Source: a virus
Taxonomy: Duplodnaviria; Caudoviricetes
Reading direction: 5' to 3' (one strand)
Length of the DNA stretch: 30,182 nt
Virus record (IMG/VR): IMGVR_UViG_3300042199_000240
Location: 1 to 30,182 of that record
The notes under the pieces are model-generated. The model saw nothing but the letters and a program-made list of their open reading frames with translations, was not told where the DNA came from and ran no database searches. Positions 1 through 17,756 of this stretch are shown one piece after another. How positions within the stretch are numbered: the first letter of the stretch is position 1; each line of letters opens with the position of its first letter. A program made the translations under genes and the position numbers.

Positions 1-10
1 GGGGTAGGAC

Positions 11-39
11 TTGACAACTGCCCCCCACCTATGTAATAA
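11..39 (+). promoter_or_regulatory. sigma70-type promoter
   Basis: TTGACA 11-16, 17-bp spacer, imperfect -10 TAATAA 34-39; AGGAG SD before ATG at 70. Confidence 0.6.
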
Positions 40-69
40 TAAAATCACTTCCTAGAGACAGGAGACAAA

Positions 70-537: not shown

Positions 538-551
538 GGGGGAGACAGAAA

Positions 552-1604: not shown

Positions 1605-1672
1605 ACCTGTCTCTTAGGTTTTGGCTTCTAGGGGGTGGGTCGCAGTTCTTGGGTGTCCTGCGACCTACTTCC
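1593..1672 (+). ncRNA. two-hairpin 3' RNA element after the ATPase gene
   Basis: Stems 1593-1604/1614-1625 (loop ACCTGTCTC) and 1631-1645/1658-1672; mismatches are G-U pairs only on the + strand; no U-tract. Confidence 0.55.
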
Positions 1673-1678
1673 ACCCAC

Positions 1679-1706
1679 TTGACAAATGACAGAAAAACGC
1701 TAGACT
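1679..1706 (+). promoter_or_regulatory. sigma70-type promoter
   Basis: TTGACA-N16-TAGACT; leader hairpin TTATCAGG/CCTGATAA; SD AAAAGGGG. Confidence 0.7.
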
Positions 1707-1751
1707 TGGATTATCAGGTTGGAAGCCTGATAACTAGAAAAGGGGAAATAA

Positions 1752-3530: not shown

Positions 3531-3540
3531 TAATAAGAAT

Positions 3541-3639
3541 TCCTTTGGTTTAGGTGCGTCCTTCCAACGCAACTCTCACCATAGAACTAAATCAAAGGAT
3601 AAGAGTGAAGCCCCTACCCCCTTTTCGGGGGCTTCGCTC
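3541..3639 (+). ncRNA. structured 3' RNA element with C/U-rich loops
   Basis: Stem 3541-3553/3587-3599 enclosing TGCGT-CCTTCCA-ACGCA; stem 3603-3614/3628-3639 with loop TACCCCCTTTTCG. Confidence 0.6.
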
Positions 3640-3668
3640 GCTATCCAAAAAGTAAAAGTGGTTCGGTA

Positions 3669-4115
3669 ATGAAACCACTAAAACCAAAGCCTGTCGTAAA
3701 TCCTGAACTATTTGTTGTTGAGTATCACTTAGGTTTTGACCCACACCCTGCTCAACAAGATGCAATTTTTTATACAGGTATGAATTGCATAGCCACAGTT
3801 AAATACGAAGGCTTTTCCGTAGATGTTTATTGTGATGGTGAGACAAGAGCAAATCTTTTGGACGCACCACAAGGGCAAGTTGTTTCTACTTTGTATTCGC
3901 CTTCAGATTTTATTGACGCTGGTTTAGATACAGATGATGCTTTGCGATTAGCAAACGAACAACAACTTCTTTATTGGGAAAATAATTCTTGGTTTGATTT
4001 GTATTGCGAAGGCGAACACTTGGATTGTGTTTCTCACGAATTAGATGAAGCGATTACCTTTGCCAAAACCTATGTAGGTGATGAGTGGGTAAGTGCGGAA
4101 ATCTTTATGTCGTAA
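3669..4115 (+). CDS. hypothetical acidic phage protein
   Basis: 148-aa ORF filling the gap between genes. Confidence 0.8.
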   Translation: MKPLKPKPVVNPELFVVEYHLGFDPHPAQQDAIFYTGMNCIATVKYEGFSVDVYCDGETRANLLDAPQGQVVSTLYSPSDFIDAGLDTDDALRLANEQQLLYWENNSWFDLYCEGEHLDCVSHELDEAITFAKTYVGDEWVSAEIFMS

Positions 4116-4118
4116 TAC

Positions 4119-4147
4119 TTGACAAAGTATTTTTTATGTGATTTACT
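4119..4147 (+). promoter_or_regulatory. promoter within an inverted repeat
   Basis: TTGACA-N17-TTTACT with TG extension; same TGATTTACTT as at 7351. Confidence 0.55.
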
Positions 4148-4180
4148 TTGACAAGACAAGTGAAAGGGGAAAAAGTAAAA

Positions 4181-4708
4181 ATGCATACTTGTCAGATTAT
4201 GTTGATTGAGGCAGATAGCGCAGAGGAAGCGATTGACTACGCCAAATCAACTATTACTTATGCGGAAGAAAGATACCCCGCTTGGTCTGATTGGCACGGC
4301 GGGTTAGACGAAGGTCTGGCTGGACGCTGGTCAGGATTATTTCAAGGCTGGGAAGAAGATAGAGATGTTCTCGGCTACACGGAGAACCCTGCGCTCGCAG
4401 AGGACATTATCAAAGAGTTTGTTTCTTATCGGACGGGAGAAATAAATCGTTCATTAGAACAAATAACGGCAGAGGACTTTGACATAAAGAAACTTGTCGT
4501 TGAATACAATCCTGAAAAAGCAGACTACGGAAGTCAGATGAACGCTTGGACTTTGGCACGGCTAGGCAAACTTCTTTCTAATTATTGGACTTCTGATACG
4601 GGCGTGTATGACCTAACGGCTCATACGGCGAACCTAGAGTTCTTTAGAGAACGGCTCGCAAAAGAACCGCACAGGCAATACCTAGTGCCAATAGATTTTC
4701 ACTTCTAA
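4181..4708 (+). CDS. hypothetical phage protein
   Basis: Start moved to ATG 4181 after SD GAAAGGGG; contains W-rich WSDW..GG...GRWSG motif and ends IDFHF. Confidence 0.8.
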   Translation: MHTCQIMLIEADSAEEAIDYAKSTITYAEERYPAWSDWHGGLDEGLAGRWSGLFQGWEEDRDVLGYTENPALAEDIIKEFVSYRTGEINRSLEQITAEDFDIKKLVVEYNPEKADYGSQMNAWTLARLGKLLSNYWTSDTGVYDLTAHTANLEFFRERLAKEPHRQYLVPIDFHF

Positions 4709-4732
4709 CAAACGGACGAAAGGAAAAAGTAA

Positions 4733-4897
4733 ATGACAACCTGCAAACATTGTGGTTGGGAAATAAAGCAAGACTTCGGGGCTTGGGTAGATGCGTGGGA
4801 ACACGCCGTCTGCTGGTGGCAAGGAGATACGGCTATGCCACACGAACCGCTGAAGCAAAAAGTAAAAACGGCAAGAGATAAATCTTTTGCTGCATAA
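4733..4897 (+). CDS. small Zn-binding-like protein (54 aa; not in ORF track)
   Basis: MTTCKHCG...C...HEP; SD GAAAGGA. Confidence 0.7.
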   Translation: MTTCKHCGWEIKQDFGAWVDAWEHAVCWWQGDTAMPHEPLKQKVKTARDKSFAA

Positions 4898-4916
4898 AAA
4901 CTAAACGGAGGGGACA

Positions 4917-5144
4917 ATGCAAGTAAAAGAGTTGTTAGCGCAGTTGGAGGAGTATGACCCTGAAACGGAACTCATAGTTGCGTATTGGGATAAGGAAACC
5001 ATAGAAGGTTATGGAAATCCGAAACTCACAGATGACCAATGGTCAGATGTTGTATTCAAATACGAAAACGGAGAGTGGTATTGGCAAAGTCTGGCTTCAG
5101 AAGATTTCGAGGGCATAGTTGCAGAAGTTGTTGATAGAACTTAA
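4917..5144 (+). CDS. hypothetical protein
   Basis: SD GGAGGGG; MxVKELxxxLxxYDP N-terminus common in phage small proteins. Confidence 0.8.
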   Translation: MQVKELLAQLEEYDPETELIVAYWDKETIEGYGNPKLTDDQWSDVVFKYENGEWYWQSLASEDFEGIVAEVVDRT

Positions 5145-5187
5145 TACAGAACCGGTCGAATAGCCAAAAAGTAAAAAGGAGGATTTA

Positions 5188-5349
5188 ATGAAACGCTGGA
5201 AGGCGACCTTCATCTCCCACTTCGGAACAGAGGTGGAAGCAGATACACAGAGGGAAGCAGAGGCTAAAGCCCTTGCTTGGCTACAAGAGGAGTATGGCTA
5301 CGACCTTGCTCGCTCTACTGAGTTTGATGTGGAACTTGACGAGGGCTAA
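5188..5349 (+). CDS. hypothetical protein (53 aa; not in ORF track)
   Basis: SD AAGGAGG; MKRWKATF...EVEADTQREA. Confidence 0.75.
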   Translation: MKRWKATFISHFGTEVEADTQREAEAKALAWLQEEYGYDLARSTEFDVELDEG

Positions 5350-5389
5350 ATGTGTGATACAAAACACACAAAATAATCCCTACCTTGAC

Positions 5390-5418
5390 TTGACACGCCT
5401 AGCCTATGCGTGTAATGT
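5390..5418 (+). promoter_or_regulatory. sigma70-type promoter
   Basis: TTGACA-N17-TAATGT. Confidence 0.7.
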
Positions 5419-5481
5419 TGGGTTTGTTAGGTCAGATACCTAATGAACGACAAAAGACAAAAGATGAAAGGAATTAGGCAA

Positions 5482-5868
5482 ATGCCTAGAACTGAAATCA
5501 AAACTGAAGTAGTCAGAAAAGTGATTACTGAAGTAGCAACAACTGAAGTTGCGCTAGACGCAACAGAAGCAAGCGACCTTATTGCTGAACTTTCAGCAAC
5601 AAGAGACGCCATTGACACCGCCACCGCAAAAGCAGAGGCTATCAAAGCCAAACTTTATGAACTTATGGGCTACGAGTTAGTCAATAAGAAGTGGGTTGGA
5701 GACGCCGAACTCGGCACTATTGGGGGAAATGTAGTAGTGAAGGTTGCTACTATCAACAACACCAAGTTTGATAAGGACGCCCTACTTACAGATAAGCCTG
5801 AACTAGCACCTGTGCTAGAGGCTTACACAAAGCCAGCACCATACAAGGCTCTCAAAATCGTAAAGTAA
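5482..5868 (+). CDS. hypothetical phage protein
   Basis: Start moved to ATG 5482 after SD GAAAGGA; followed by a terminator. Confidence 0.8.
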   Translation: MPRTEIKTEVVRKVITEVATTEVALDATEASDLIAELSATRDAIDTATAKAEAIKAKLYELMGYELVNKKWVGDAELGTIGGNVVVKVATINNTKFDKDALLTDKPELAPVLEAYTKPAPYKALKIVK

Positions 5869-5876
5869 TTTACGAG

Positions 5877-5908
5877 GAAGCCCCCACCGAAAGGTGGGGG
5901 TTTTCTTT
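5877..5908 (+). terminator. intrinsic terminator
   Basis: CCCCCACC-GAAA-GGTGGGGG followed by TTTTCTTT. Confidence 0.85.
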
Positions 5909-5910
5909 AC

Positions 5911-5939
5911 TTGACTTTTTTAGAATAAAGCATTAGGAT
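5911..5939 (+). promoter_or_regulatory. leaderless promoter
   Basis: TTGACT-N17-TAGGAT; ATG 6 nt after the -10. Confidence 0.75.
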
Positions 5940-5945
5940 AGAGAC

Positions 5946-7016
5946 ATGAAACCAACAGACGCCCTAGAAATACAAAGAGACTACAAGTTTAAGTGTCAAG
6001 ACGCTTACTTCTGTTCCGTCATAAATAACATGATGTTGTCAGGTTCAGGTATTAGACATTACGAACAAGTAAAAAAATTATCTGCTGAGAAAATAGTAAA
6101 TGCTTATTTAGATAGTGCGGTAAAAGTAGGTCTTGAAAAAACTCCTTGCTATTTTGTAAAAGATGAAATGACAGACTTGATTATGTTTGCTTCACAAAAA
6201 CTTGATGATACAGATTTGTTTGACGCTAGTTTTGTGCCGTCTGATAAAGGATTTGTTTATTTTGAGAAACCAATAGAAATTAGAGATGTTAGAAATAGAA
6301 AACTTTTAGGAAATGTTATTGTTTGGGAAAAAGGATTTTCTCATGGAAAGCACGGAATTATAGCAACTTTATACAATGACGCACACAGAACTCCTGATGA
6401 TGTAGCAAGTCTTATGATAAATGATAAAAACAAAGAAAAACATGTAGAAAAAAACTTACTTAAAATTGGTCGTTTTCATTGGATACACTCCTTAAATCTT
6501 GTTCATGGAGACATTATTGGAGAAGCAGTAAAGGTTGCTGACGAAGAAGAAAAAGAAGAAATGCGAGATTTTATCTTTAGTGAAGATGGAAATGAACTTA
6601 TCTCTCTTGATGATGAGGCGTGGGAAAAATACAAAGAAGAAAAAATTACTCCATACACAAACATAAAAAGAATTATTCACACCTACTTTTTGATTATGAG
6701 CCAAACGCTTACCGCAAAAGCACCTGAGCGTGGCGATAGAGCGCAAAGACGCCGACTAGAGCGAGAGAACTTGCCTAGCGAGGTTCTTGTTATTCAATTC
6801 CGTAAAACACGCTACACAAGTGCGGAAGGTGGCGAGGAACGCTCTGTAAATTGGTCGCACAGGTGGATAGTTGGTGGGCATTGGCGTTGGCAACCATACA
6901 AAGACCCCGCAAGTGGTGGCGAAATCAAAAAGCGTATTTGGATTAGCCCCTATGTAAAAGGGCCGGACGACAAACCACTAAAGACCAAAGAAAGGGTTTA
7001 TGTTCTCGCTAAGTAA
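5946..7016 (+). CDS. conserved phage protein of unknown function
   Basis: C-terminal HRWIVGGHWRWQ...IWISPYVKGP motif, which recurs in phage hypothetical proteins. Confidence 0.8.
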   Translation: MKPTDALEIQRDYKFKCQDAYFCSVINNMMLSGSGIRHYEQVKKLSAEKIVNAYLDSAVKVGLEKTPCYFVKDEMTDLIMFASQKLDDTDLFDASFVPSDKGFVYFEKPIEIRDVRNRKLLGNVIVWEKGFSHGKHGIIATLYNDAHRTPDDVASLMINDKNKEKHVEKNLLKIGRFHWIHSLNLVHGDIIGEAVKVADEEEKEEMRDFIFSEDGNELISLDDEAWEKYKEEKITPYTNIKRIIHTYFLIMSQTLTAKAPERGDRAQRRRLERENLPSEVLVIQFRKTRYTSAEGGEERSVNWSHRWIVGGHWRWQPYKDPASGGEIKKRIWISPYVKGPDDKPLKTKERVYVLAK

Positions 7017-7338
7017 TCTTGTTGTTCATACTTTCGAGCCACGCACCGAAAAAGTAAATGGTGATGAATTAATCGTTGATGACGAAACTATGTGGGTTGC
7101 GACTTGCCAACAAGATGACCCCAAAGCACCAAAACTCTCAAATAAAATGTATGAAAGATTATTTCAGTTGTATGGTCTGGCAGAAGCAAAAAGTAAAAAT
7201 CCTAAGATGTGCGTCGAGTGTGCGGTGATTAATTTCCAAGAACAACTTGAGTTGTTGGACTTCATGCCCCTAACTGAAGTGCTATTCGCAGATGCGGATA
7301 CTCACCCTGACGACACACCTGAAGAAGAACTTGACTAA
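7000..7338 (+). CDS. hypothetical protein
   Basis: Overlaps the end of the upstream gene; contains CVEC. Confidence 0.7.
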   Translation: MFSLSNLVVHTFEPRTEKVNGDELIVDDETMWVATCQQDDPKAPKLSNKMYERLFQLYGLAEAKSKNPKMCVECAVINFQEQLELLDFMPLTEVLFADADTHPDDTPEEELD

Positions 7339-7359
7339 ACTACAAAACTATGATTTACT
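7331..7359 (+). promoter_or_regulatory. promoter within an inverted repeat
   Basis: TTGACT-N17-TTTACT, flanked by CTTGAC...GTCAAG. Confidence 0.55.
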
Positions 7360-7384
7360 TAGGTCAAGAAAAGGGGGTTAGCAA

Positions 7385-7642
7385 ATGGCTAACGAAGATA
7401 CAACAACATTAGAAGTTACCGCCGAAGAAGGCGCATTTATCAACATGGGCTTAGCATTGTTGCTACAAATGCTAGGTGATGACATTGACAGAGTGGCAAA
7501 TCTAAAGAAAGAACACCATATGGAAAAGTTATTCTTTCTAATGGATACCAAAATGGGAGTAGGTAGTTTGTGGCGCAAGGTATTGGTAACTATGGGTGCT
7601 GACCCTGACGACATAGCAAACCACCTACGAGAGCAGGAATAA
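7385..7642 (+). CDS. hypothetical protein
   Basis: SD GAAAAGGGGG; 85 aa. Confidence 0.8.
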   Translation: MANEDTTTLEVTAEEGAFINMGLALLLQMLGDDIDRVANLKKEHHMEKLFFLMDTKMGVGSLWRKVLVTMGADPDDIANHLREQE

Positions 7643-7875
7643 TGGACGAAATACAACCAACACGAACTATTATGTTTGTGGGCGATTACTTTACGCTAAT
7701 GACTACCATAGTCTTAGACGAAAGCCTTAGAAACCTTGATGAAGATGATGATAGGGATTTTGCGGTAAGACTTGGCTCAGAGTTTATCAAGTCTTACTAT
7801 GGATTTGATGTAAAGAAAGTTTCTAATAGCATTGGCGTCATTGACGAAATGGGAGAAGAAATAGATGAAAACTAA
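7642..7875 (+). CDS. hypothetical acidic protein
   Basis: TAATG translational coupling to the upstream gene. Confidence 0.8.
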   Translation: MDEIQPTRTIMFVGDYFTLMTTIVLDESLRNLDEDDDRDFAVRLGSEFIKSYYGFDVKKVSNSIGVIDEMGEEIDEN

Positions 7876-8212
7876 TCTTGATGATTTTGTTGCGGTAATC
7901 TCCAACATTGAGTTAGGCGAGTTTGACGGAAAACTTGATTTGTTAGAGAAGGCGGTGCTGGAACGAAAAAGTAAAATCAGAGCCAACACCACCATTGACG
8001 ACTTTGTTGTTGGTGATGCGGTGACTATCAACGACAGATGCGGAACTCGCTACCTACGAGGTGAAACAGGTGTGGTCGCTGGGATACGCCGAACCAAACT
8101 TGTAATCCACTTTGACGACCCAAAGGGACGCTTTGCTCGCAAGAACGCAGACGGAAGTATTTATTCTTCTGATGTTATTGTCCCAATAGAAATCGTAGAT
8201 AAGAAAAACTAA
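7865..8212 (+). CDS. hypothetical protein, possible SH3/KOW-like beta-barrel
   Basis: FVVGDAVTI...GETGVV pattern; SD GGAG. Confidence 0.7.
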   Translation: MKTNLDDFVAVISNIELGEFDGKLDLLEKAVLERKSKIRANTTIDDFVVGDAVTINDRCGTRYLRGETGVVAGIRRTKLVIHFDDPKGRFARKNADGSIYSSDVIVPIEIVDKKN

Positions 8213-8230
8213 AACAAAAAACAACTTCCG

Positions 8231-8267
8231 AAACTCGGCATCTTTTGGTGTCGAGTTTTTACTTTTT
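8231..8267 (+). terminator. intrinsic terminator
   Basis: AAACTCGGCATC-TTTT-GGTGTCGAGTTT followed by TTACTTTTT. Confidence 0.75.
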
Positions 8268-8357
8268 GGCTAGGCACGCCGGCGCTGTCTGGTCATGCAT
8301 TAGAAACAACTTTCGTAGTCTTCCTTCAGCAAGAGGTTGAACAACCTATGAACAACC

Positions 8358-8386
8358 TTGACTTTCAAGAACGCTAGTGATAGAGT
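8358..8386 (+). promoter_or_regulatory. sigma70-type promoter
   Basis: TTGACT-N17-TAGAGT with TGn extension; TGAACAACCT direct repeat immediately upstream. Confidence 0.75.
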
Positions 8387-8409
8387 GCGGTTAATGAAAG
8401 GGGGATTTC

Positions 8410-8646
8410 ATGGCAACTGAAACTTCTATGGCTTATCACTTGCGAGGAAACTTCTATCCGCCACTTCCGCTTGACTACACACAACCAGCGTTGGAAGCGT
8501 TGGCTCATTGTGAAGCAGAAGATTTTGATGCGGTAGTGGTTCTTCCAGCAGACATAGAGCCACACCCGGCTTGCGCTACTAAGACAGAGCGTGGTTGGGA
8601 AGTAAGTGCGAGTGACCTTGTTCGCATCTTACGACTTGATAGATAA
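8410..8646 (+). CDS. hypothetical phage protein
   Basis: SD GAAAGGGGG; HLRGNFYPP motif. Confidence 0.8.
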   Translation: MATETSMAYHLRGNFYPPLPLDYTQPALEALAHCEAEDFDAVVVLPADIEPHPACATKTERGWEVSASDLVRILRLDR

Positions 8647-8649
8647 TGC

Positions 8650-8678
8650 TTGACTTTAGGTGGGGAGAGTGTTATGCT
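8650..8678 (+). promoter_or_regulatory. sigma70-type promoter
   Basis: TTGACT-N17-TATGCT with TGn extension. Confidence 0.8.
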
Positions 8679-8708
8679 CTCCCTATCTACTAAAGAAAGG
8701 GGAAGTTT

Positions 8709-9014
8709 GTGTTTGATTTGGTAGAAAAAAGAGTAGGCGAAGCAAAGGCTATCGCTTGGGACACTTGCCACAAGATTTACTTGCTAATGGATAACGAGCA
8801 GGTAGAACTAATGCGTGGCTACGGATACGAACCACTTATTACCGCAGATGAAATGAAGCCAGCAGAGATGTTGGAAACTCTTAAGTATTGGTATGAAAAC
8901 TCTTGCTTTCTTAGATTTATCGATGCGGTAAGCACTAATCACGAAGACCCTAATGCTGGATTCGAAACTTTGATAGGTCAGTTCGATGGCGTAGATGAGG
9001 ACGAAGATGAGTAA
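8709..9014 (+). CDS. hypothetical phage protein
   Basis: GTG start after GAAAGGGG; WDTCHKIY and WYENSCFLRFI motifs. Confidence 0.8.
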   Translation: MFDLVEKRVGEAKAIAWDTCHKIYLLMDNEQVELMRGYGYEPLITADEMKPAEMLETLKYWYENSCFLRFIDAVSTNHEDPNAGFETLIGQFDGVDEDEDE

Positions 9015-9165
9015 GCCATTACACCCCAGCCCATACAAGCCCAACTTAGCATCTTGCGAAGTTTGTTGGGCAGATAGTAGCGAAACTACTATCTATCGCT
9101 ACAAAGGAACTACTTATTGCGGTTATGATTTAGAACGAGCCAAGAAAGAAGGTTGGCACAAATGA
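9007..9165 (+). CDS. small Zn-ribbon-like protein (52 aa; not in ORF track)
   Basis: CEVC...YCGYD; overlaps both neighbours (ATGA at 9162). Confidence 0.7.
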   Translation: MSKPLHPSPYKPNLASCEVCWADSSETTIYRYKGTTYCGYDLERAKKEGWHK

Positions 9166-9362
9166 AACTAAAAGTAAAAAATGTTCGATTTGATTTCGAG
9201 TATGAAGGAGGAAAGTATCCCCCACGCAAGAAACAAGATGCCATTGTTCGTGCGGTCATAGGAAAAGTCTATGAAGTAGAGAACGAGGACTTCCTTGCTG
9301 ATGCTATTTCAGACGATACAGGTTGGTGCATCTACGAACTCGATTACGAGGAAGTAGGATAA
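9162..9362 (+). CDS. hypothetical phage protein
   Basis: ATGA coupling; LADAISDDTGWC motif. Confidence 0.8.
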   Translation: MKLKVKNVRFDFEYEGGKYPPRKKQDAIVRAVIGKVYEVENEDFLADAISDDTGWCIYELDYEEVG

Positions 9363-9373
9363 GAAGTAAAAGT

Positions 9374-9401
9374 TCCCCCGCTTTGTGCGGGGGATTTTTT
9401 T
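9374..9401 (+). terminator. intrinsic terminator
   Basis: TCCCCCGC-TTTGT-GCGGGGGA followed by T7. Confidence 0.85.
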
Positions 9402-9588
9402 GCCTATACAGCGATAGCCAGAAAAGTGTAAAGGCTGAACTACAAATAACTTTGATGCGGTTAATCCAGGCATTAATCCCGTAGCCAAAAAGTAAAAATT
9501 GCCAGATGCGGATTAACAGCAATAACCAGTAGTGCATACTGAAGTTGTTTGTAGTTTTGCCAGCCACCAAAATCGCCAGTGCGGTGTA

Positions 9589-9618
9589 TTGACAAAAGGC
9601 AGGAAGGTTTGATAGAGT
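9589..9618 (+). promoter_or_regulatory. leaderless promoter with operator-like spacer
   Basis: TTGACA-N18-TAGAGT; ATG at 9626. Confidence 0.7.
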
Positions 9619-9625
9619 GTGCGGT

Positions 9626-9826
9626 ATGACGAAAAAGAAAAAGAAACCAGCACCCAGAAAACCTGTTCAACCCAAAAAGAAGTTAAAAGTAAAAAAGTGG
9701 TTGATGTGGGGATTTCTATTCGTGCTAGGTTCTGTATTACTAACTGAGAACGCACCCGTGTTTATTGTCTCAACTATCTTTGGTTGGCACTTACACAAGC
9801 GTTATGAAATCCATAAGAAGGTCTGA
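9626..9826 (+). CDS. small membrane protein with basic N-terminus
   Basis: Lys-rich N-terminus followed by two hydrophobic segments. Confidence 0.7.
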   Translation: MTKKKKKPAPRKPVQPKKKLKVKKWLMWGFLFVLGSVLLTENAPVFIVSTIFGWHLHKRYEIHKKV

Positions 9827-9827
9827 T

Positions 9828-9856
9828 TTGACAAAAGACAAAGAAAATGCTAAGAT
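9828..9856 (+). promoter_or_regulatory. sigma70-type promoter
   Basis: TTGACA-N17-TAAGAT with TGn extension. Confidence 0.8.
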
Positions 9857-9884
9857 GTTTTTAGAGATGTTGGAAGGAGGAGAA

Positions 9885-10391
9885 ATGTCAAAGATAATGA
9901 CACCAGCATACGCTCCCGATTATGGTTTGGAGTTAGACAGAGAGTTATGGTCTGAAGTCCTACCCGGCCTATGGCAAGGTGGAACTGACGACTTAGATAC
10001 GATTTGGGAACTTGATAGACCACAGGTTGCGGAGATAACAAAGAAAGAGTTTGACACAGTTATTACCGCCTACGCTTGGGCGAACCCTTGCGACTGGTTG
10101 GTAAAAGAAGTTCGTTTTCCGTTCTATGACGGAAGGATAGAGGACATTGACTTAGTAGAACTTTACCAAGTCGTTCGTATCGCCCATGACGACTGGAAGC
10201 GTGGTAAGAAGGTTCTTATCCGTTGCCAAGCAGGTTGGAATAGGTCAGGGCTTATTACGGCTCTAGTCCTAATGCGTGAAGGTTATACGGCAGATGAAGC
10301 AATAACACTTATTCGCCAAAAGAGAAGCCCACACGCCTTGTGTAATACAGCGTTTGATAAATGGTTGCGTAGCCTTCCTGCCCAAGAATAA
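9885..10391 (+). CDS. dual-specificity/tyrosine protein phosphatase
   Basis: CX5R loop VLIRCQAGWNRSG; FYDG general-acid loop; AITLIRQKR; start moved to ATG 9885 after GGAGG. Confidence 0.9.
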   Translation: MSKIMTPAYAPDYGLELDRELWSEVLPGLWQGGTDDLDTIWELDRPQVAEITKKEFDTVITAYAWANPCDWLVKEVRFPFYDGRIEDIDLVELYQVVRIAHDDWKRGKKVLIRCQAGWNRSGLITALVLMREGYTADEAITLIRQKRSPHALCNTAFDKWLRSLPAQE

Positions 10392-10417
10392 TCCGACACG
10401 CCGAAAGGCAGGAAGGT

Positions 10418-10446
10418 TTGACAAAAGGCAGGAAGGTCTGTAATCT
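10418..10446 (+). promoter_or_regulatory. promoter with tandem AAAGGCAGGAAGGT boxes
   Basis: TTGACA-N17-TAATCT; boxes at 10404-10417 and 10424-10437. Confidence 0.8.
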
Positions 10447-10490
10447 AAGGGTATTGGCTAAATAGTCAATAGAAAAGGGGTAAGGACAAA

Positions 10491-10646
10491 ATGAGAACAG
10501 AAGCGAAATACAAAAGACGCAGACTTGCGGTAGTTATTGTTTTTGTCGCACTTGTTGTTTGGGCTATGGACGCTACCACACCAGAGATGTGTAAAGTGCC
10601 AACAGAACAAATGAACCAATTTTGTTTAGACCTGTTGTATCCATAA
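10491..10646 (+). CDS. small membrane-anchored protein (51 aa; not in ORF track)
   Basis: YKRRRL followed by a TM helix and a C-terminal Cys pair; SD AAGGA. Confidence 0.75.
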   Translation: MRTEAKYKRRRLAVVIVFVALVVWAMDATTPEMCKVPTEQMNQFCLDLLYP

Positions 10647-10667
10647 TAACTAAAGGGGGTAGTAATA

Positions 10668-10919
10668 ATGTCAGGTTGGAGAACTAAAAAAGCAAATGCT
10701 TTAGCAAAAAGAGAAGCCTCTTTTATCAAAAGCAGAGAAAGACTTAGCACACCTCGTGCGGAGTTTTTACTAAAGTTTGCTTTTATGAGTGATGAGCAGT
10801 TTGAGAAATGGTCTGAACTAAAGACAAGTGCCGAAGCAAGAGCCTTTATGGAAGCACTACCAATGCCTCAAACAAAAACAAATGAAGTGTTTATCAAACT
10901 AGACAAAGAAGAAAGATAG
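10668..10919 (+). CDS. hypothetical protein
   Basis: SD AAAGGGGG. Confidence 0.75.
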   Translation: MSGWRTKKANALAKREASFIKSRERLSTPRAEFLLKFAFMSDEQFEKWSELKTSAEARAFMEALPMPQTKTNEVFIKLDKEER

Positions 10920-10931
10920 GGAAAAAGTAAA

Positions 10932-11099
10932 ATGGTCTTAGACACAGGAACAATGCTCGCAATAGTTATTGCGCTTGCGGGTTCGTGCTTTGTTATGGTT
11001 GTAGGTATTAGAGCGCAAGGTAAGTTGATACGGGAAAACAACAGACTTCGCAAAGAACTAACTGAACTTCACTACGACAAAGTGAGAGGAGGAATCTAA
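10932..11099 (+). CDS. small TM + coiled-coil protein (55 aa; not in ORF track)
   Basis: MVLDTGTMLAIVIALAG...LIRENNRLRKEL; TAATG coupling. Confidence 0.75.
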   Translation: MVLDTGTMLAIVIALAGSCFVMVVGIRAQGKLIRENNRLRKELTELHYDKVRGGI

Positions 11100-11281
11100 T
11101 GGAAGGAACTAATGTGATGCTTGACCCTATGGACTGCGACTTAGCGTGTCAGTTTGAGTGGATTGAGATTTCATCTAACTTCTTCAGCGTTGCGGTTTAT
11201 ACTCCAGCGTTGATTATTGGTTTAGGTGCTTACTTTATTTACAAAGGTTTCAAGAAAGCCAAATCAAAGAAGAAGGTTTAG
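11099..11281 (+). CDS. small membrane protein
   Basis: SD GGAGG; C-terminal TM helix and basic tail. Confidence 0.75.
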   Translation: MEGTNVMLDPMDCDLACQFEWIEISSNFFSVAVYTPALIIGLGAYFIYKGFKKAKSKKKV

Positions 11282-11289
11282 GTCGAGTA

Positions 11290-11493
11290 ATGGCAAAAAG
11301 TAAAAAACTAGAGCCAACAGCGTCCCAGATGTATCAGTCTGGATTGTCGATAGATGCGGTTGCTAAAGAACTTGGCATCACTTATCGAACTGCTCGCAAA
11401 GCAATTAGAGGTGGAGGGGTCATCTTGCGTGACCCGTCTGCTCGTCTGCGAGGTAGAACTCGCCCCGACAAAAGAAAGAGGTCATCAAGTTGA
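11290..11493 (+). CDS. helix-turn-helix DNA-binding protein
   Basis: YQSGLSIDAVAKELGITYRTARKAI..GGVILR, typical of small actinobacterial HTH proteins. Confidence 0.85.
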   Translation: MAKSKKLEPTASQMYQSGLSIDAVAKELGITYRTARKAIRGGGVILRDPSARLRGRTRPDKRKRSSS

Positions 11494-11645
11494 AGAACTT
11501 GAACATTATTTGGACAGCAGTAGTTTCCAGCCTGACTGGTGCGCTCGCAGTCTTGGTTGCTCTCTGGGGTGACCCAGATGTGGCTTTGGCTTTAGGTGCG
11601 GTATCTATTGCCTCAGCCATACTCTCTTTGAGAGAGAACCAATGA
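11490..11645 (+). CDS. two-TM microprotein (51 aa; not in ORF track)
   Basis: TTG start overlapping the upstream TGA; two hydrophobic helices split by GDPD. Confidence 0.65.
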   Translation: MKNLNIIWTAVVSSLTGALAVLVALWGDPDVALALGAVSIASAILSLRENQ

Positions 11646-11646
11646 T

Positions 11647-11675
11647 TTGACTTTCCTGCCCTGCTATGACAGGAT
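11647..11675 (+). promoter_or_regulatory. promoter for a putative small RNA
   Basis: TTGACT-N17-CAGGAT with TGn extension; no credible ORF before the next promoter. Confidence 0.6.
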
Positions 11676-11681
11676 AGGGAT

Positions 11682-11738
11682 AACACAAGGGGCTCTCCGA
11701 CATACCTTCCCCCGTCCGAGAGCCTCTTGTCCTTTATT
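11682..11738 (+). ncRNA. putative ~55-nt hairpin small RNA with C-rich loop
   Basis: 13-bp stem 11685-11697/11718-11730 plus GAC/GTC; loop ATACCTTCCCCC; T-rich tail. Confidence 0.6.
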
Positions 11739-11751
11739 GGCGTGTCGCTAC

Positions 11752-11780
11752 TTGACTTGTAGATTAGAGTGCGGTATTGT
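11752..11780 (+). promoter_or_regulatory. sigma70-type promoter
   Basis: TTGACT-N17-TATTGT. Confidence 0.75.
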
Positions 11781-11807
11781 ATGGTTATGTTCCAAAAGGG
11801 GGATAAA

Positions 11808-11921
11808 ATGGCAAAATCACAGAAAATCCAAATCATTTACATAAACTGCTGGAAGTGCGGAAAAGCGATTTCTATGCCTGAAAGCGACTATTATCACGGC
11901 GCAAGTTGCGGAAAGTGCTAG
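11808..11921 (+). CDS. Zn-finger microprotein (37 aa; not in ORF track)
   Basis: CWKC...CGKC; SD AAAAGGGGG. Confidence 0.75.
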   Translation: MAKSQKIQIIYINCWKCGKAISMPESDYYHGASCGKC

Positions 11922-12109
11922 TCAAATACCACCTTCCTGCTCTTTTTATGCTAGGCTAGATACCTAGAAAGACGCACGACCTAACGACTAACACGAAAGG
12001 TAAGCAATACCTAGTCTCCCCAAAGAGGGTGGCAAGGGTGGCTAAGTCAGCACCCGACCTGCGGTAAGCGATACGCAGGGTGTCCATGTCCCCTAACAAA
12101 GGAAAGTGA

Positions 12110-12739
12110 ATGCAAAAACCTAGTAGAGCCATCGAAAAATCTATAAGCGTTGTTTTATCTGTTGCGGTAATTTCGATGTTTTCGACCTATGTTCAAGCGT
12201 CTAGCGCAGAAGAACAAAAAGTAAAAAATGAAGTGCAGTTGCAGGAAGAAATCCAGAAAGAGAAAACCTACGAACAACTCGTCGAAGATGAGATTGCTCG
12301 CCACAAGGAAACTATCAAAGCCCTACAACTAGAACGCTTCGCAAATCAAAGAACCCCTTTCACTAACGAAGAACTCGCTCAACTACTTTACGCGGTTGGG
12401 TTTGAGGGCAAAGCCCTGAAGGTTGCTTGGGCAGTTGTGAAGAAGGAAAGTAATGGTCGCCCTTTAGCCTTCAATGGCAATAAAAGAACTGGTGACTCGT
12501 CATACGGCATCTTCCAAATCAACATGATTGGTGGATTAGGCGTAGATAGACGCGAGAAGTATGACCTAAAAACAAATACCGAACTATTCAACCCTGTCGT
12601 CAATGCCGAGATTGCTTTTCACATGAGTAATCAAGGAGAAGATTGGACATCATGGAAGGTTGGTGGAGGCTATAATGGTGTCGACCAAGAACGCTTTCTT
12701 TCTTGGTATTCCAAGTTTCCCGAAGGAGTTGTCCCTTGA
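12110..12739 (+). CDS. secreted lytic transglycosylase (lysozyme-like/SLT fold)
   Basis: N-terminal signal/TM; catalytic KESNG, SYGIFQIN, LFNPVVNAEIA and WTSW motifs. Confidence 0.85.
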   Translation: MQKPSRAIEKSISVVLSVAVISMFSTYVQASSAEEQKVKNEVQLQEEIQKEKTYEQLVEDEIARHKETIKALQLERFANQRTPFTNEELAQLLYAVGFEGKALKVAWAVVKKESNGRPLAFNGNKRTGDSSYGIFQINMIGGLGVDRREKYDLKTNTELFNPVVNAEIAFHMSNQGEDWTSWKVGGGYNGVDQERFLSWYSKFPEGVVP

Positions 12740-13197
12740 TTGAAGAAACCCCAGAGGCATTAGCCCCAGAACCAACTCCTGCGGTAGTAATACCTGAAGT
12801 TGTTGCGCCTGTATTTGCTGTCGAGCCAGAACCTGAACTGGTCAAAGAACCTGAAGTTGTTGTTAGTGCACCTGCTGCGGCTGCTGTCGAAGAGCCAAAA
12901 AGTAAAAATAATGCAGCGGCGGCGTCGAAGTTAAGTGGAAGTAAGAAAGTTGTTCGTTTGTCGAAACTTGTTTTCGAGGCACCTGAACGAAACTCTTCTT
13001 CAGTTGGTCTGTTCCAATTCCGTTTAGTTGAGCGAGGTTTTCATCTTGCTGGAACTGATAAGTTTGGCTGGATTAGCGAAGGAACTAAAAAGGCTTTTGC
13101 CGAGTTCGCTGGAGTGAAAGAAGATAAAGTAAATTTCCAAGATGCGGTTCTAGTCAAGCGTTTGTTTGAAGGAACTAGCATTGAGGTAGTTGATTAG
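12736..13197 (+). CDS. Pro/Glu/Ala-rich linker plus peptidoglycan-binding-like domain
   Basis: TTG start after AAGGAG overlapping TGA; SSVGLFQFRLVERGF...DKFGWISEGTKKAF resembles PG_binding_1. Confidence 0.6.
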   Translation: MIEETPEALAPEPTPAVVIPEVVAPVFAVEPEPELVKEPEVVVSAPAAAAVEEPKSKNNAAAASKLSGSKKVVRLSKLVFEAPERNSSSVGLFQFRLVERGFHLAGTDKFGWISEGTKKAFAEFAGVKEDKVNFQDAVLVKRLFEGTSIEVVD

Positions 13198-13203
13198 TTA
13201 GTA

Positions 13204-13246
13204 AAAGAAATAACCCCCTAGTTATTCGCTAGGGGGCTTTCTTTTT
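13204..13246. terminator. bidirectional terminator between convergent gene blocks
   Basis: A-rich flank, CCCCCTAG/CTAGGGGG stem, TTTCTTTTT. Confidence 0.8.
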
Positions 13247-13272
13247 GTTGGGCAACCACTTGCCAACAAAAC

Positions 13273-13947
13273 TTATTTTGTTTTTCTATTGCTCTCTGTT
13301 ATTGAGCGATACGCTGGTGACTTTCCGTGTTCTGTTGTGCGGTAGCCATAGCGAACTAGTCTAAAGGCTATCGCTGAAGTAGTCACGCCTAAAAGTTTTG
13401 CTAAGCGATAAAGAGTGACACCTTGCTCTTTGTGTGCTTGGTTTAGGAGATAAGTGTATTCCTCTGCCTCTGCTCTATAACGCGGTGAGTTTGAGCGAAC
13501 CTGTTGAGCATAAGGTTGTAGTTCCTTTAGCCTTTCCAATAACTCTGGAGTTGGCATAACATAGCGAGAAGTTCCAACCTTTTCTGCGTGGCGTGGAACA
13601 TCTGGTATCAAAAGAGTTGCTGGTGCTGGATTAGGTTTATGACTTGTCATAATCACTCTAATCATCTGTGCGGATAATCCTGACGCCCTTGCTACTGACG
13701 CCTGTGACCAACCTGCTTTGACTAACGCAATAATGTAATCGTTGCGTTGGTCTTTGTCCGCCTTTGTTGCTTTTGTGTCTAAAACTCTAAACAAGTCATA
13801 AACTTGTTGCGGTAGTTCTAGGTTTGATTTCTTTGGTAATCCTGCTCTCTTGTAGAAAGTAGGTCTTTCTTTGGGTAGTGCGTAGCGTGCGTTGTGCGCT
13901 CGCTCTAACTGACCCGGATTTGTTTTGAAGTTTATTGCCGTTGTCAT
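13273..13947 (-). CDS. double helix-turn-helix protein
   Basis: GWSQASVARASGLSAQMIR and GVTLYRLAKLLGVTTSAIAFRL. Confidence 0.8.
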   Translation of the reverse strand: MTTAINFKTNPGQLERAHNARYALPKERPTFYKRAGLPKKSNLELPQQVYDLFRVLDTKATKADKDQRNDYIIALVKAGWSQASVARASGLSAQMIRVIMTSHKPNPAPATLLIPDVPRHAEKVGTSRYVMPTPELLERLKELQPYAQQVRSNSPRYRAEAEEYTYLLNQAHKEQGVTLYRLAKLLGVTTSAIAFRLVRYGYRTTEHGKSPAYRSITESNRKTK

Positions 13948-13976
13948 TTTGTCCTTTCGTCTAACTTCTAAACAAC

Positions 13977-14005
13977 ATACTACACAAGTAGCATTTGTTT
14001 GTCAA
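13977..14005 (-). promoter_or_regulatory. sigma70-type promoter
   Basis: TTGACA-N17-TAGTAT on the minus strand. Confidence 0.8.
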
Positions 14006-14051
14006 ATCAAATCTTATCTAACTTTTTACTTTTTCGCTACTGCTGTAAAGT

Positions 14052-14080
14052 GAAAAACCCCGCCTGCTGGCGGGGCTTTC
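14052..14080 (-). terminator. intrinsic terminator
   Basis: CCCCGCC/GGCGGGG stem with T-tract on the minus strand. Confidence 0.8.
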
Positions 14081-14094
14081 CTATGAAGTTGTTT

Positions 14095-14430
14095 TTAGTT
14101 CATGCGTAGGAAGTTGCGTAGTTCTTGTGCGGTTTCCTCATTTAGTCCGAGAGTTTCTCCCTCGTCACCTGTGCCACCTGTGAAAATAACATTTCCACAA
14201 ATAACATCTGTCAAGCCGAAGTATTTTTCCCATAGGAAAGTAGCCATTGGGTTGATAGGAAGTCCGTGTAGTTTGCCTTCCTCATTACACCATAGCGTTA
14301 GGTTTGGCGTAAAATCTACGGCTTGAACCCAACCACCTACGGCGTCTTGTAAAACTTTTAGTTGGCTCTCGCCCTCTGTAAGTTCTATCTCTTTTGCTAC
14401 GCCTTCTGCGTCTAGTGTTATCGCTAGCAT
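14095..14430 (-). CDS. DUF3846-like protein
   Basis: LQDAVGGWVQ...WCNEEGKL.GLPINPMAT...ICGNVIFTG. Confidence 0.85.
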   Translation of the reverse strand: MLAITLDAEGVAKEIELTEGESQLKVLQDAVGGWVQAVDFTPNLTLWCNEEGKLHGLPINPMATFLWEKYFGLTDVICGNVIFTGGTGDEGETLGLNEETAQELRNFLRMN

Positions 14431-14457
14431 TTTGATAGCACCCCCTTTCTTTGTATA

Positions 14458-14486
14458 AGGCTAACCTATACGGCTAGCATTGTCAA
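14458..14486 (-). promoter_or_regulatory. sigma70-type promoter
   Basis: TTGACA-N17-TAGCCT. Confidence 0.7.
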
Positions 14487-14491
14487 GCATT

Positions 14492-14662
14492 TTAGAAACA
14501 CGACACGCATAGGTAGTTATTAGTTCCACCCTCGTTATAGACCTCTGAGCCGAAAGGCACTTTCTCCTCGCACTCTAGGCACTCTATACCCCCGAAGTAT
14601 TCTCGCCAATGGTCGTTATGAGTTCCTTTATCCCACTCGCTTGTGCGGGTTGCTTTTGTCAT
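14492..14662 (-). CDS. Zn-finger microprotein (56 aa; not in ORF track)
   Basis: CLEC...CVSC; SD AGGGGG. Confidence 0.7.
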   Translation of the reverse strand: MTKATRTSEWDKGTHNDHWREYFGGIECLECEEKVPFGSEVYNEGGTNNYLCVSCF

Positions 14663-14693
14663 TTTACTTTTTCCCCCTACTCTTTGCGGTCTT

Positions 14694-14879
14694 TTATTGA
14701 AAACTTTTTACTACTTTTGCTATTGGCTTTAGGATAGTTGCCAACACTCTGAAACTGCCTTCAATACCTGCGCCTAAGTTTTGTAGGTTTTCCTCGTGGG
14801 TGGCATAGTGCTTGCGCTTTGGCTTGCGGTGTAGTCGCTTGTAAGTTCCTACTATCGCACTATCAGGTAGTCCTCGCAT
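14694..14879 (-). CDS. small basic hypothetical protein
   Basis: Own promoter and SD AAAGGAAAG. Confidence 0.65.
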   Translation of the reverse strand: MRGLPDSAIVGTYKRLHRKPKRKHYATHEENLQNLGAGIEGSFRVLATILKPIAKVVKSFQ

Positions 14880-14907
14880 TTTCTTTCCTTTCCTTTGTTA
14901 TGCCCTA

Positions 14908-14936
14908 ATACTATGCCCTAGTTTTACGCTTGTCAA
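14908..14936 (-). promoter_or_regulatory. sigma70-type promoter (near-duplicate of 15320-15348)
   Basis: TTGACA-N17-TAGTAT. Confidence 0.8.
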
Positions 14937-14975
14937 GCCCTGCGGGTGTGTTTCTCGCCACATTTTTAGGGGGGT

Positions 14976-15140
14976 CTAAAACTCTTTAGGGGGTAGCCCT
15001 CGCCACTCTCTCATAGCCTCGTCTGTGCCACACCTAGAGCAGATAGCGGTCTTGTTATCCCTGCGGGATAGTGCGGGGTAGCCTGTGTAGTAGTCCTTAC
15101 ATCTAGGACATTGTTTTAGGTCTGTCATTTCGTCTGCCAT
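14976..15140 (-). CDS. Zn-finger microprotein (54 aa; not in ORF track)
   Basis: CPRC...PALSRRDNKTAICSRCGTDEA, a recurrent phage Zn-finger pattern. Confidence 0.8.
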   Translation of the reverse strand: MADEMTDLKQCPRCKDYYTGYPALSRRDNKTAICSRCGTDEAMREWRGLPPKEF

Positions 15141-15153
15141 TTTTACTTTTTCC

Positions 15154-15279
15154 TTAGCCTAGAAGTCCAAGTGCGCCAAGTATTGAGAGAGTAAAAACTA
15201 CAACCATAGCCCCACCCACTCCGAGAAGTTGAGCGTCTGCGGTATCAAACCACTCTGCGATTTCGTCTAGCAAGTTCAT
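15154..15279 (-). CDS. small membrane protein (41 aa; not in ORF track)
   Basis: SD AAGGAG; C-terminal hydrophobic helix. Confidence 0.7.
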   Translation of the reverse strand: MNLLDEIAEWFDTADAQLLGVGGAMVVVFTLSILGALGLLG

Positions 15280-15319
15280 TGTTCTGTCTCCTTTTAGCAC
15301 TCCTTGTGCTTATGGGTGA

Positions 15320-15348
15320 ATACTATGCCCTAAACTTACGCTTGTCAA
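15320..15348 (-). promoter_or_regulatory. sigma70-type promoter
   Basis: TTGACA-N17-TAGTAT. Confidence 0.8.
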
Positions 15349-15384
15349 GTCTTTACTATACGGCGTGTCTATGATTTAGGCAAC

Positions 15385-15411
15385 AAAAAACCCCCCTATG
15401 CGGGGGGTCTT
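15385..15411 (-). terminator. intrinsic terminator
   Basis: C6/G6 stem with T-tract on the minus strand. Confidence 0.75.
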
Positions 15412-15423
15412 TGTCAAGCCTTT

Positions 15424-15660
15424 TTAGGCTAGGGATAGAACCTGTCTTGGGTGATTTAGAACAATCCCTAAGATTTCCTCTGCGGTTAGCATACGGGCTT
15501 CCTTTCCGTAGGCTTCCTCTGTGACGATTACCTCTGTAATCGGTGCGGTGGTCTTTAGGAGTAGTTCCCTAACCTGTGCGGTGGTATCTACTACGAAAGA
15601 GTAGTTAGTTGGGTATCCCTTGCCCTCATCTACCGAAATCATTACTCCGTGTTGAGCCAT
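15424..15660 (-). CDS. hypothetical protein
   Basis: Own promoter, SD GGAAAGGGA and terminator. Confidence 0.8.
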   Translation of the reverse strand: MAQHGVMISVDEGKGYPTNYSFVVDTTAQVRELLLKTTAPITEVIVTEEAYGKEARMLTAEEILGIVLNHPRQVLSLA

Positions 15661-15710
15661 TTTCTTTTGCTTCCCTTTCCTTAGTTGTAGTCGCTTTGAC
15701 TACATAGATA

Positions 15711-15739
15711 ACACTAGAACATAGTCTAGCCTTTGTCAA
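15711..15739 (-). promoter_or_regulatory. sigma70-type promoter
   Basis: TTGACA-N17-TAGTGT; leader hairpin TGTAGTC/GACTACA. Confidence 0.75.
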
Positions 15740-15844
15740 GTAAAGACTAGGCGTGTCTTTTTTGTTATCAAATTGTTATAAAAAACCTTCACATTTTTGA
15801 CACCAAGCAAGAGGGTGTATCTGAGTTGTTTGTAGTTTCCTAGC

Positions 15845-15871
15845 CCAGACATGACCAGACATGACCAGACA
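15845..15871. repeat. 10-bp tandem repeat CCAGACATGA x2.7 in AT-rich non-coding block
   Basis: CCAGACATGA CCAGACATGA CCAGACA. Confidence 0.9.
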
Positions 15872-16206
15872 CTACTAGTCAGTAGCATAAGTATCAAGTA
15901 AAAGTTTATAGTTGAATAAAGATTTATAACAAGCCTTAGAAAAATAAAAAACACATAGGCAACCAAAAAACATTTTATACAAGTAAAAAGTAAAACAAAA
16001 AGCCCAAAAGACTTTGCTTGGAACGATTTTTTAGAAAACTAAAAACATTATTCTTTGTAAGTCATTTATTTCCGGAAACGATTTCGACGAAGGCTAAAAA
16101 CAAGCGTACCCGTCTCACAGGTCAAAACCAAAATATGGAAAGGTTCATATATTTTAGTCTATCGTCCAATACTCTTGCTGCTCCAGTTATATGTTAAAGT
16201 TGTAGT

Positions 16207-16312: not shown

Positions 16313-16321
16313 ACGAGTGAC

Positions 16322-16349: not shown

Positions 16350-16372
16350 AAATACCCCTTAGTCTTTTTCGT

Positions 16373-16615: not shown

Positions 16616-16645
16616 AATCTAACAAAAGGTAAGGGTGTACAAGGC

Positions 16646-17255: not shown

Positions 17256-17756
17256 ATGAAGAAAAAGACCAGACTTCCAGAAGACGAAGTTCGTTTTCTT
17301 TCTGGTTTATCAGAACAACTTCTCAAGGAACGCATCAGAGCGTTGTGGGAAACAGGTTGGTCGTTAGCAGTTATTGCTAATTCACTCAAACCAGTTCGCC
17401 CTAAGTCCACAGTTCACTTCTGGGTTCAGAATACGACTGCTACACCTCAAAGAAGACCAGTCCCACCAACTCCACCTAAGTCCTTGACCGTTACAGCACC
17501 GCTTTCAGACGCTCCAATAACTCGTTCCATATCTCCAGGTGTCCCACCAGAGTTGAAACCGCGTCTAAAGCAACTTGCAGACCTATCTAGACGCTACAGA
17601 GCAAAGACAGCACCTAATAGTCCGCTTGCTGAAGCCAACAGAGAACTAACAGTTCTCGCTAAGGACTTATATGACCGCGGAATACCTGCCGCAGCCGTAG
17701 CAGAAGCGGCTGGAGTCACTTACAGAGCGATGGCGAGGAGATTGAGTAATGGCTAG
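17256..17756 (+). CDS. double helix-turn-helix protein, paralogue of 13273-13947
   Basis: GWSLAVIANSL and GIPAAAVAEAAGVTYRAMARRL. Confidence 0.8.
   Translation: MKKKTRLPEDEVRFLSGLSEQLLKERIRALWETGWSLAVIANSLKPVRPKSTVHFWVQNTTATPQRRPVPPTPPKSLTVTAPLSDAPITRSISPGVPPELKPRLKQLADLSRRYRAKTAPNSPLAEANRELTVLAKDLYDRGIPAAAVAEAAGVTYRAMARRLSNG

Follow-up and report, generated by a model that had tools for sequence, protein, structure and literature searches.

A strand-polarised TGCGG zone at the predicted right end of an actinophage terminal repeat, a candidate Chi-like signal

Why should a five-base word crowd onto one strand of a phage genome, whichever way the genes run beneath it? The question is raised by a 30,182-nt stretch of viral DNA (Caudoviricetes; positions 1 to 30,182 of IMG/VR record IMGVR_UViG_3300042199_000240), referred to here as the window. 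Between positions 7221 and 15582 the word TGCGG occurs 46 times on the plus strand and once on the minus strand, and in the remaining 21.8 kb the counts are 10 plus and 18 minus. The analysis below shows the feature to be genuine, spread through the phage family and linked to an end of the genome.

A polarised pentamer in the left half of the window

An earlier note on this DNA, made from its letters alone, had described the signal as a hexamer, TGCGGT, with 30 plus-strand copies in 7221..15582 and a single ACCGCA at 8841. All 30 positions and the lone minus-strand copy were recovered on recount. The hexamer itself did not hold, as the base that follows TGCGG varies (T 30, A 9, G 6, C 1). The sequence around the sites carries no further information, and for this reason a motif of six bases or more was dropped; the true unit is the 5-mer TGCGG. 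Outside the zone, the plus-strand TGCGGT copies at 942, 6116 and 18381 are present as the note had listed them, but nine minus-strand copies had gone unlisted. Its chance expectation of about one to two TGCGGT compares with 1.1–1.6 under a first-order Markov model and, for coding copies, with 2.9–4.1 under a codon shuffle, against 23 coding copies seen.

The excess survives a codon-aware null, so the note was right that codon bias fails to explain the motif. With synonymous codons shuffled, 9.0 ± 2.5 coding TGCGG are expected in the zone and the maximum in 1000 shuffles was 16, whereas 35 are observed, and TGCGG is the strongest outlier of all 1024 5-mers there. Gene calls in the window are our own choice among the listed open reading frames. 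The word ranks first of 1024 in plus genes (24 vs. 8.0 expected) and also in the minus genes (11 vs. 1.5) of the leftward block at 13273..15660, where it still stands on the plus strand, and 11 more copies lie within the 1,809 non-coding bases of the zone. The orientation is thus the same in plus genes, minus genes and intergenic DNA, as had been claimed. The best two-rate segment of the window is 6821–15581, with 47 plus-strand copies, 30 of them TGCGGT; its right edge is abrupt and its left edge fades. The sites are spaced at a mean of about 186 bp, slightly more evenly than random (P about 0.05), and helical phasing was looked for among them and not seen.

Relatives and the genome end

The window comes from the genome of a large actinophage of fresh water. 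Its portal protein (18780..20519, plus strand), which was used for placing the phage, is 75% identical to that of the lake phage DSL-LC01 and 57–61% identical to those of the Microbacterium phages Pumpernickel, Cece, A3Wally and Zooman; its closest relatives in culture have hosts in the Microbacteriaceae and Micrococcaceae. An actinobacterial host is predicted for DSL-LC01, and the accessible parts of its description do not mention the motif (PMC10611076). Our literature searches on the motif and the phage family, mostly of open-access main texts, found no report of the motif.

Among 20 further IMG/VR lake relatives, which include two near-identical pairs, TGCGG is a top-5 polarised 5-mer in 14 and the first in 10. 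A polarised zone toward the right end, made of TGCGG with or without TGCCG, is found in these 14, in DSL-LC01 and in five of six cultured Microbacterium and Arthrobacter relatives whose repeats have been sequenced. The zone is local and not genome-wide in the 122.9-kb record G001 and in the complete DSL-LC01, so the similar density throughout the genome by which the earlier note would have given up its claim is not what these relatives show; DSL-LC01 has a second TGCGG peak at 122–126 kb, in collagen-like genes. At all 10 loci found with the helix-turn-helix (HTH) gene, TGCGG is commoner on the same side. Where that gene is inverted (L010) the polarity is unchanged, and it is likewise kept despite the inversion of Atuin gp4 and Racecar gp5.

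Under the codon null, with GenBank gene calls for these five genomes, the counts are 45 vs. 12.1 for TGCCG and 27 vs. 9.2 for TGCGG in Atuin, 50 vs. 9.2 and 29 vs. 10.8 in Racecar, and 29 vs. 10.1 and 33 vs. 13.6 in A3Wally. TGCGG reaches 21 vs. 5.2 in Pumpernickel and 69 vs. 26.2 in DSL-LC01, and the rank is 1 to 3 in all five; Zooman gives 19 vs. 5.7 and 19 vs. 6.5 with our own gene calls. The zones of the cultured relatives and DSL-LC01 were delimited after the counts were seen. A weaker word, TACGG, is co-polarised with TGCGG (103 vs. 64 and 27 vs. 9 in 12 pooled lake loci). In aligned genes, the window and the related record G002 share 10 coding sites, with 17 found only in the window and 10 only in G002, and for G001 the figures are 6, 15 and 11. 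Most sites are thus peculiar to one genome: the density is kept and the position is not.

Cressida, RobsFeet, Rowlf, Cantare, Forza, Sixama and GodonK have no clear zone in a Markov test, the only one applied to them (best 6-kb observed/expected ratio, O/E, ≤2.9), and none was seen in the first 11 kb of Jay2Jay. Kurnik has TGCGG at 79 vs. 49.9 (rank 3) in a region where all genes are on the minus strand, which makes the excess indistinguishable from sense-strand bias, and we count it neither for nor against. The same caveat applies to RubyRalph, which shows no such signal (TGCGG 78 vs. 64.8, rank 128; TGCCG 76 vs. 51.7, rank 23).

The relation to termini, which the earlier note had raised, is clear in the relatives: the zone is tied to a genome terminus and faces the right end in cultured kin. 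For the window, we infer from a depth step, synteny, an end motif and gene layout a direct terminal repeat, with a predicted length of about 22 kb and the zone at its right end; positions 1..16108, with their small convergent early genes, would be its right three quarters. In all four runs the contig depth is higher on the left than on the right (ratios 1.75, 1.45, 1.54 and 2.03), with the drop near 16.2–17.5 kb; these are contig means, not raw reads, from runs picked for containing 6500–16400, three of which may be the source of the window itself. Contigs terminate at 16279–16512. Four cultured Microbacterium phages encode homologs of the HTH protein of 13273..13947 (minus strand) at 0.6–1.8 kb from their physical right ends. 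The genomes of Atuin and Racecar end about 300–360 bases beyond the last leftward gene, and the window has the same layout. By eye, GAAAC begins 34 bases before the final base in five cultured genomes (AAAAC in Cece). This spacing, together with the conserved non-coding GGAAACGATT element at 16074..16108 (plus strand; found at 18 of the 25 loci looked at, a set in which some loci belong to the same contig), predicts a right end near 16,108.

Direct terminal repeats measure 15,503 to 20,468 bases in the six cultured relatives. The cultured genomes begin with a gene whose homolog in G001 and G002 lies 5.5–5.65 kb to the left of the homolog of window gene 70–537. The left border of the repeat would then fall about 5.5 kb before the window begins, and the estimate of about 22 kb follows from this. 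Depth with a fixed border (as contig means), end motif and synteny all agree with phages that carry long direct terminal repeats, though redundancy of the pac type could account for the depth in place of a fixed-border repeat. The zone ends before an AT-rich block, as the earlier note had it: the block (26% GC) spans 15,880–16,075, right of the last motif and left of the predicted end, and short tandem copies of AGACATGACC precede it at 15847 and 15857. In the lake relatives the zone stops in the gap that precedes a second HTH gene (17256..17756, plus strand, in the window), and its edge tracks this gap even where the gap is about 4–8 kb farther from the portal gene. A clustering of contig starts before the second HTH gene was set aside because trimming could cause it.

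Readings of the motif

TGCGG behaves like a terminally clustered Chi and is a candidate for one. The reading that we prefer, and to which we give about an even chance, is that the word restrains, in the manner of a Chi, a host end-resection helicase-nuclease, presumably AdnAB, that enters from the right end. AdnAB is assumed to be present in Micrococcales and acI. The enzyme would enter at the right end and travel leftward along the 3'-ended plus strand, each TGCGG would be recognised with modest probability and turn the nuclease down, and a 3' tail would be left while repeat homology remains. Such a tail could protect the end and favour repeat-to-repeat circularisation or concatemer formation. 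Many copies, an abrupt edge on the entry side and a fade beyond it are what such probabilistic stopping would produce.

Several observations are consistent with this proposal. Like Chi, TGCGG is a short asymmetric word independent of gene direction, and an enzyme entering the predicted end of the window would meet it from its 3' side. What stays the same is the geometry, in which the word on the plus strand reads 5' to 3' in the direction of the right end and the zone breaks off abruptly on that side. In five of six cultured genomes a TGCGG stands within about 50–110 bases of the physical right end. The evidence for a right end near 16.1 kb in the window, the spread through the family, the edge that moves with the end gap and the turnover of single sites at kept density also speak for the proposal. 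Active Chi in phage LLS has the same orientation, with the word facing the right end (PMC12315714), and over-representation of Chi is strongest in T5-like and P1-like phages (PMC3784561). The family carries its own recombination genes, which is no argument against Chi, since phages with recombinases but without a RecBCD inhibitor also cluster Chi near the packaging end (PMC3784561). TGCGG is one base away from AGCGG, the Chi of B. subtilis (PMC4824097), and it also overlaps GCGGTGGT, a putative Chi of Caulobacter (PMC5443536). Of the options listed in the earlier note, a directional signal at the DNA level is supported and a Chi-like one fits best, while a genome-wide primase site and a KOPS-like site are not supported.

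Host DNA was examined with an acI probe from PMC3699509, which gave 78 loci, 42 of them with enough flank; these 42 rRNA-oriented, partly homologous flanks of acI-type contigs hold 355,516 bases. This 355 kb was searched for an architecture signal of the KOPS or Chi kind in acI hosts, and none was seen. TGCGG is split 445:336 (0.57), which places it 14th among 20 words that share its base composition, and its O/E of 0.97–1.01 shows no over-representation; for Chi in E. coli the O/E is about 2.3 (PMC3784561). The result bears on the motif only if the host is acI; a second route to the host, through the phage WhiB, led to no usable host genome. The most skewed words in the rRNA orientation of the acI-type contigs (L119–L196) are GGTGG and TGGTGG (720:220 and 262:49), which may reflect codon usage or serve as an architecture word of the host.

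The acI counts weigh against a host Chi, and other observations stand with them. In six of the 20 lake relatives TGCGG does not form a zone of top-5 rank: two GC-rich records have a weak one, and four, all of one clade, show TGCCG, ACACGG or GCTCG instead. In Cece TGCGG is weak and unpolarised (24:21, our gene calls), and no zone was seen in four Microbacterium phages with only distantly related portals. The soil phages have their main zone in the left part of the repeat, separated from the right end by 7–15 kb or more, and only a small cluster near that end; the window itself has no TGCGG in the last 530 bases before its predicted end. For AdnAB, no Chi is known in the accessible parts of three papers (PMC5314763, PMC4824097, PMC12848934), and one paper terms the enzyme putatively Chi-independent (PMC5314763; PMC12848934). 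In the part of PMC13000450 that is accessible, Chi appears solely in the references.

A control in favour of the Chi-like reading came from SPO1, whose 13.2-kb terminal redundancy holds AGCGG at 29 vs. 6.8 expected, an enrichment of about fourfold, rank 2 among 5-mers and the top one that is not a homopolymer. Outside hairpins the split is 21 plus to 9 minus, and it is 9 to 2 in the following 12.7 kb. A limited literature search found no report of this enrichment. The control is not clean, because the T5 repeat is also rich in AGCGG (23 vs. 8.1) and TGCGG (16:5), while holding two Chi octamers; part of the SPO1 result may thus reflect something common to long repeats, again to the disadvantage of a host Chi. 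In the first 1.5 kb of SPO1 (L353:1-13200) more AGCGG points toward the left end (5 vs. 3), and elsewhere mostly toward the right end. A wider claim, that in TGC(G/C)G phages reveal the Chi that actinobacterial AdnAB has long seemed to lack, that a whole family from lakes to soils fills its terminal repeat with this word, and that long-repeat phages generally, SPO1 included, guard and join their ends with the Chi of the host, appears to us somewhat short of an even chance.

That a protein of the phage, a primase or an exonuclease, reads the word instead is possible but doubtful. In the unlikely event that it is the primase, a Prim-Pol/D5 primase-helicase would prime at 5'-CCGCA/CGGCA on the exposed minus strand as the repeat is duplicated, with a fork or nick-driven displacement moving leftward from the right border. 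This would account for the polarity on one strand, the confinement to the repeat and the missing host signature. The family encodes a Prim-Pol (PF09250) with a D5-type helicase in 11 of 23 records, and Gordonia kin with short repeats (1.6, 1.7 and 7.6 kb) lack the zone. Triplet-specific priming has precedents in the pRN1 Prim-Pol at GTG and the SP6 primase at GCA (PMC2034472), and the minus-strand word contains GCA. Yet the genome-wide lagging-strand skew expected of a primase site was absent, as six genomes have no matching strand skew outside the zone. The zone spans only part of the repeat and in A3Wally extends 9 kb past it, and one site per 186 bp is far denser than the generally known Okazaki spacing. 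The primase domain does not appear to track the motif either, since G009 and G011 are sisters in the primase tree with different top words, although that tree is weakly resolved and the words may be other features. A primase of the T7/SP6 type was ruled out because that of the family is Prim-Pol/D5. A bidirectional origin was considered too, but the surplus of CCGCA beyond the right edge (12 vs. 4.6) is in line with a general bias of sense strands, and we gave it no weight. Among other phage readers, the HTH protein of 13273–13947, suggested by the earlier note's proposed binding assays, is improbable, as Atuin has the zone and no match to this protein.

That the word guides or gates a DNA motor in KOPS-like fashion, leading it to the repeat border in genome entry (as in the two-step transfer of T5) or in packaging, is quite unlikely in our judgement. 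The density does climb to a sharp edge, as in Atuin, with 8, 11, 14, 26, 25 and 11 and then 1, 0 and 2 copies per kb; the last kilobase is often the peak in lake relatives, and in the Arthrobacter phages the zone occupies the first 5.7 kb from the left end. But the edge lies at the repeat border in lake phages and inside the repeat in soil phages, where no shared landmark was seen, no motor candidate was identified, and TGCGG is outside the top 12 words of the T5 repeat; neither a comparable opposite zone beyond the edge nor an acI skew, as expected of KOPS, was found. We hold it very unlikely that a Cas4-like exonuclease of the phage pauses at the word, so that resection for repeat annealing halts within homology: Gordonia kin have the nuclease (39–42% identical) without a zone, and we know of no sequence-specific pausing in this exonuclease family, even though genes for PDDEXK_1, AAA_24 and DUF669 are adjacent in the family and a phage reader needs no host signature. 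That the pattern arises from codon-pair bias, from the avoidance of restriction sites or from a repeat linked to transcription is highly improbable and already largely refuted: on the same strand the pooled counts exceed expectation both in plus genes (233 vs. 90) and in minus genes (75 vs. 17), intergenic DNA shows the excess too, the polarity is kept at the inverted genes, and one word is common to phages of hosts in different genera. Sense-strand CCGCA excess is common, as in the right part of the window and in the minus genes of DSL-LC01 (48 vs. 25.7), and may inflate the minus-gene counts.

Whether AdnAB responds to a Chi-like signal is treated as an open question in the accessible parts of papers of 2016 and 2026. 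For the Chi-like brake, the motif offers a concrete candidate word and orientation, and cultured phage-host pairs exist in Atuin or Racecar with Arthrobacter globiformis and A3Wally or Zooman with Microbacterium foliorum. If a phage protein reads the word instead, the motif would be a handle on the copying or delivery of terminal repeats of 15–25 kb, which to our knowledge are poorly understood.

Neighbouring features and known systems

Inside the zone, a rightward block of small genes (7000..13197, plus strand) encodes a dual-specificity phosphatase (9882–10391), a small HTH protein (11290–11493) and an SLT_3 lysozyme-like protein (12110–12739). The element AAAGTAAA occurs 18 times on the plus and 5 times on the minus strand between 3649 and 15987, mostly along gene direction and often directly upstream of start codons, and is likely a leader or translation element. 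GACACGCC boxes at 5392 and 10395 (plus) and at 11739, 15362 and 15750 (minus) lie close to promoter-like sequences and may be related to the ACACGG word of three lake relatives (G009, G017 and G019). ACACGG, and GCTCG in G011, are doubtful as replacement words; both are polarised but mostly intergenic, in regions with almost no genes other than plus genes, and are possibly promoter elements. In G019 (L336) and G009 (L339), TGCGG and CGCGG are nearly missing on both strands over 20 kb, with ACACGG at 27:3 and 18:0, and loss or replacement of TGCGG under restriction pressure is possible. GATC has zero copies in the whole window (1–30182), and to the left of 16.3 kb GCNGC (9 vs. 50), CGCG (3 vs. 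18) and AATT (33 vs. 89) are rarer than to the right, which suggests restriction avoidance in the repeat.

At the right border, a conserved non-coding element of about 100 bases (16074–16175; GGAAACGATT ... TCACAGG ... TTCATAT ... CGTCCAAT), which the window has in common with G001 and G002, is a candidate for the terminase cutting region. Pumpernickel (L040) differs from the other five cultured phages in having five CCGCA, the opposite orientation, in its last 140 bases just before the right end. Atuin (L197:15670, 16194) and Racecar (L199:20314) have perfect palindromes near the right end, which we take to be of the parS type, and a ParB-like gene inside the zone. An HslV-like gene and its neighbour (16373–17215) are outside the zone in the window and inside it in G001, G002 and DSL-LC01, whose copy has five TGCGG where that of the window has one. 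After the portal gene, 21642–29810 encodes a 2722-aa protein that has a DEDD-type exonuclease domain and also gives a weak PI3/4-kinase-like match.

KOPS and other architecture-imparting sequences resemble the zone in being strand-polarised and independent of gene direction, with a density that rises to a fixed point. The zone is one-sided and confined to 6–15 kb of a phage repeat, and has neither an opposite-facing zone nor a host skew. The priming sites of the pRN1 Prim-Pol (GTG) and SP6 (GCA; PMC2034472) are comparable in that the minus-strand word contains GCA and the family has a Prim-Pol, but the genome-wide lagging-strand pattern is absent and the primase tree does not appear to follow the changes of the motif. 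Other parallels are found in AGCGG of B. subtilis (PMC4824097) and, as computed here, in the redundancy of SPO1, likewise a GCGG-containing pentamer in a long repeat of convergent early genes that favours the right-end orientation. The window family differs from them in its first base, T in place of A, in TGCCG as a second form in soil phages, in a far stricter polarity (46:1 in the window vs. 29:17 in SPO1) and in the lack of host over-representation in acI DNA. The terminal Chi clusters of LLS and P1 (PMC12315714; PMC3784561) are likewise made of many short asymmetric words, mostly in one orientation, terminal and facing the right end. There the word is a tested RecBCD octamer in enterobacterial phages largely without recombinases, whereas here it is a pentamer of putative recognition, in a family with its own recombination genes and actinobacterial hosts without a known Chi.

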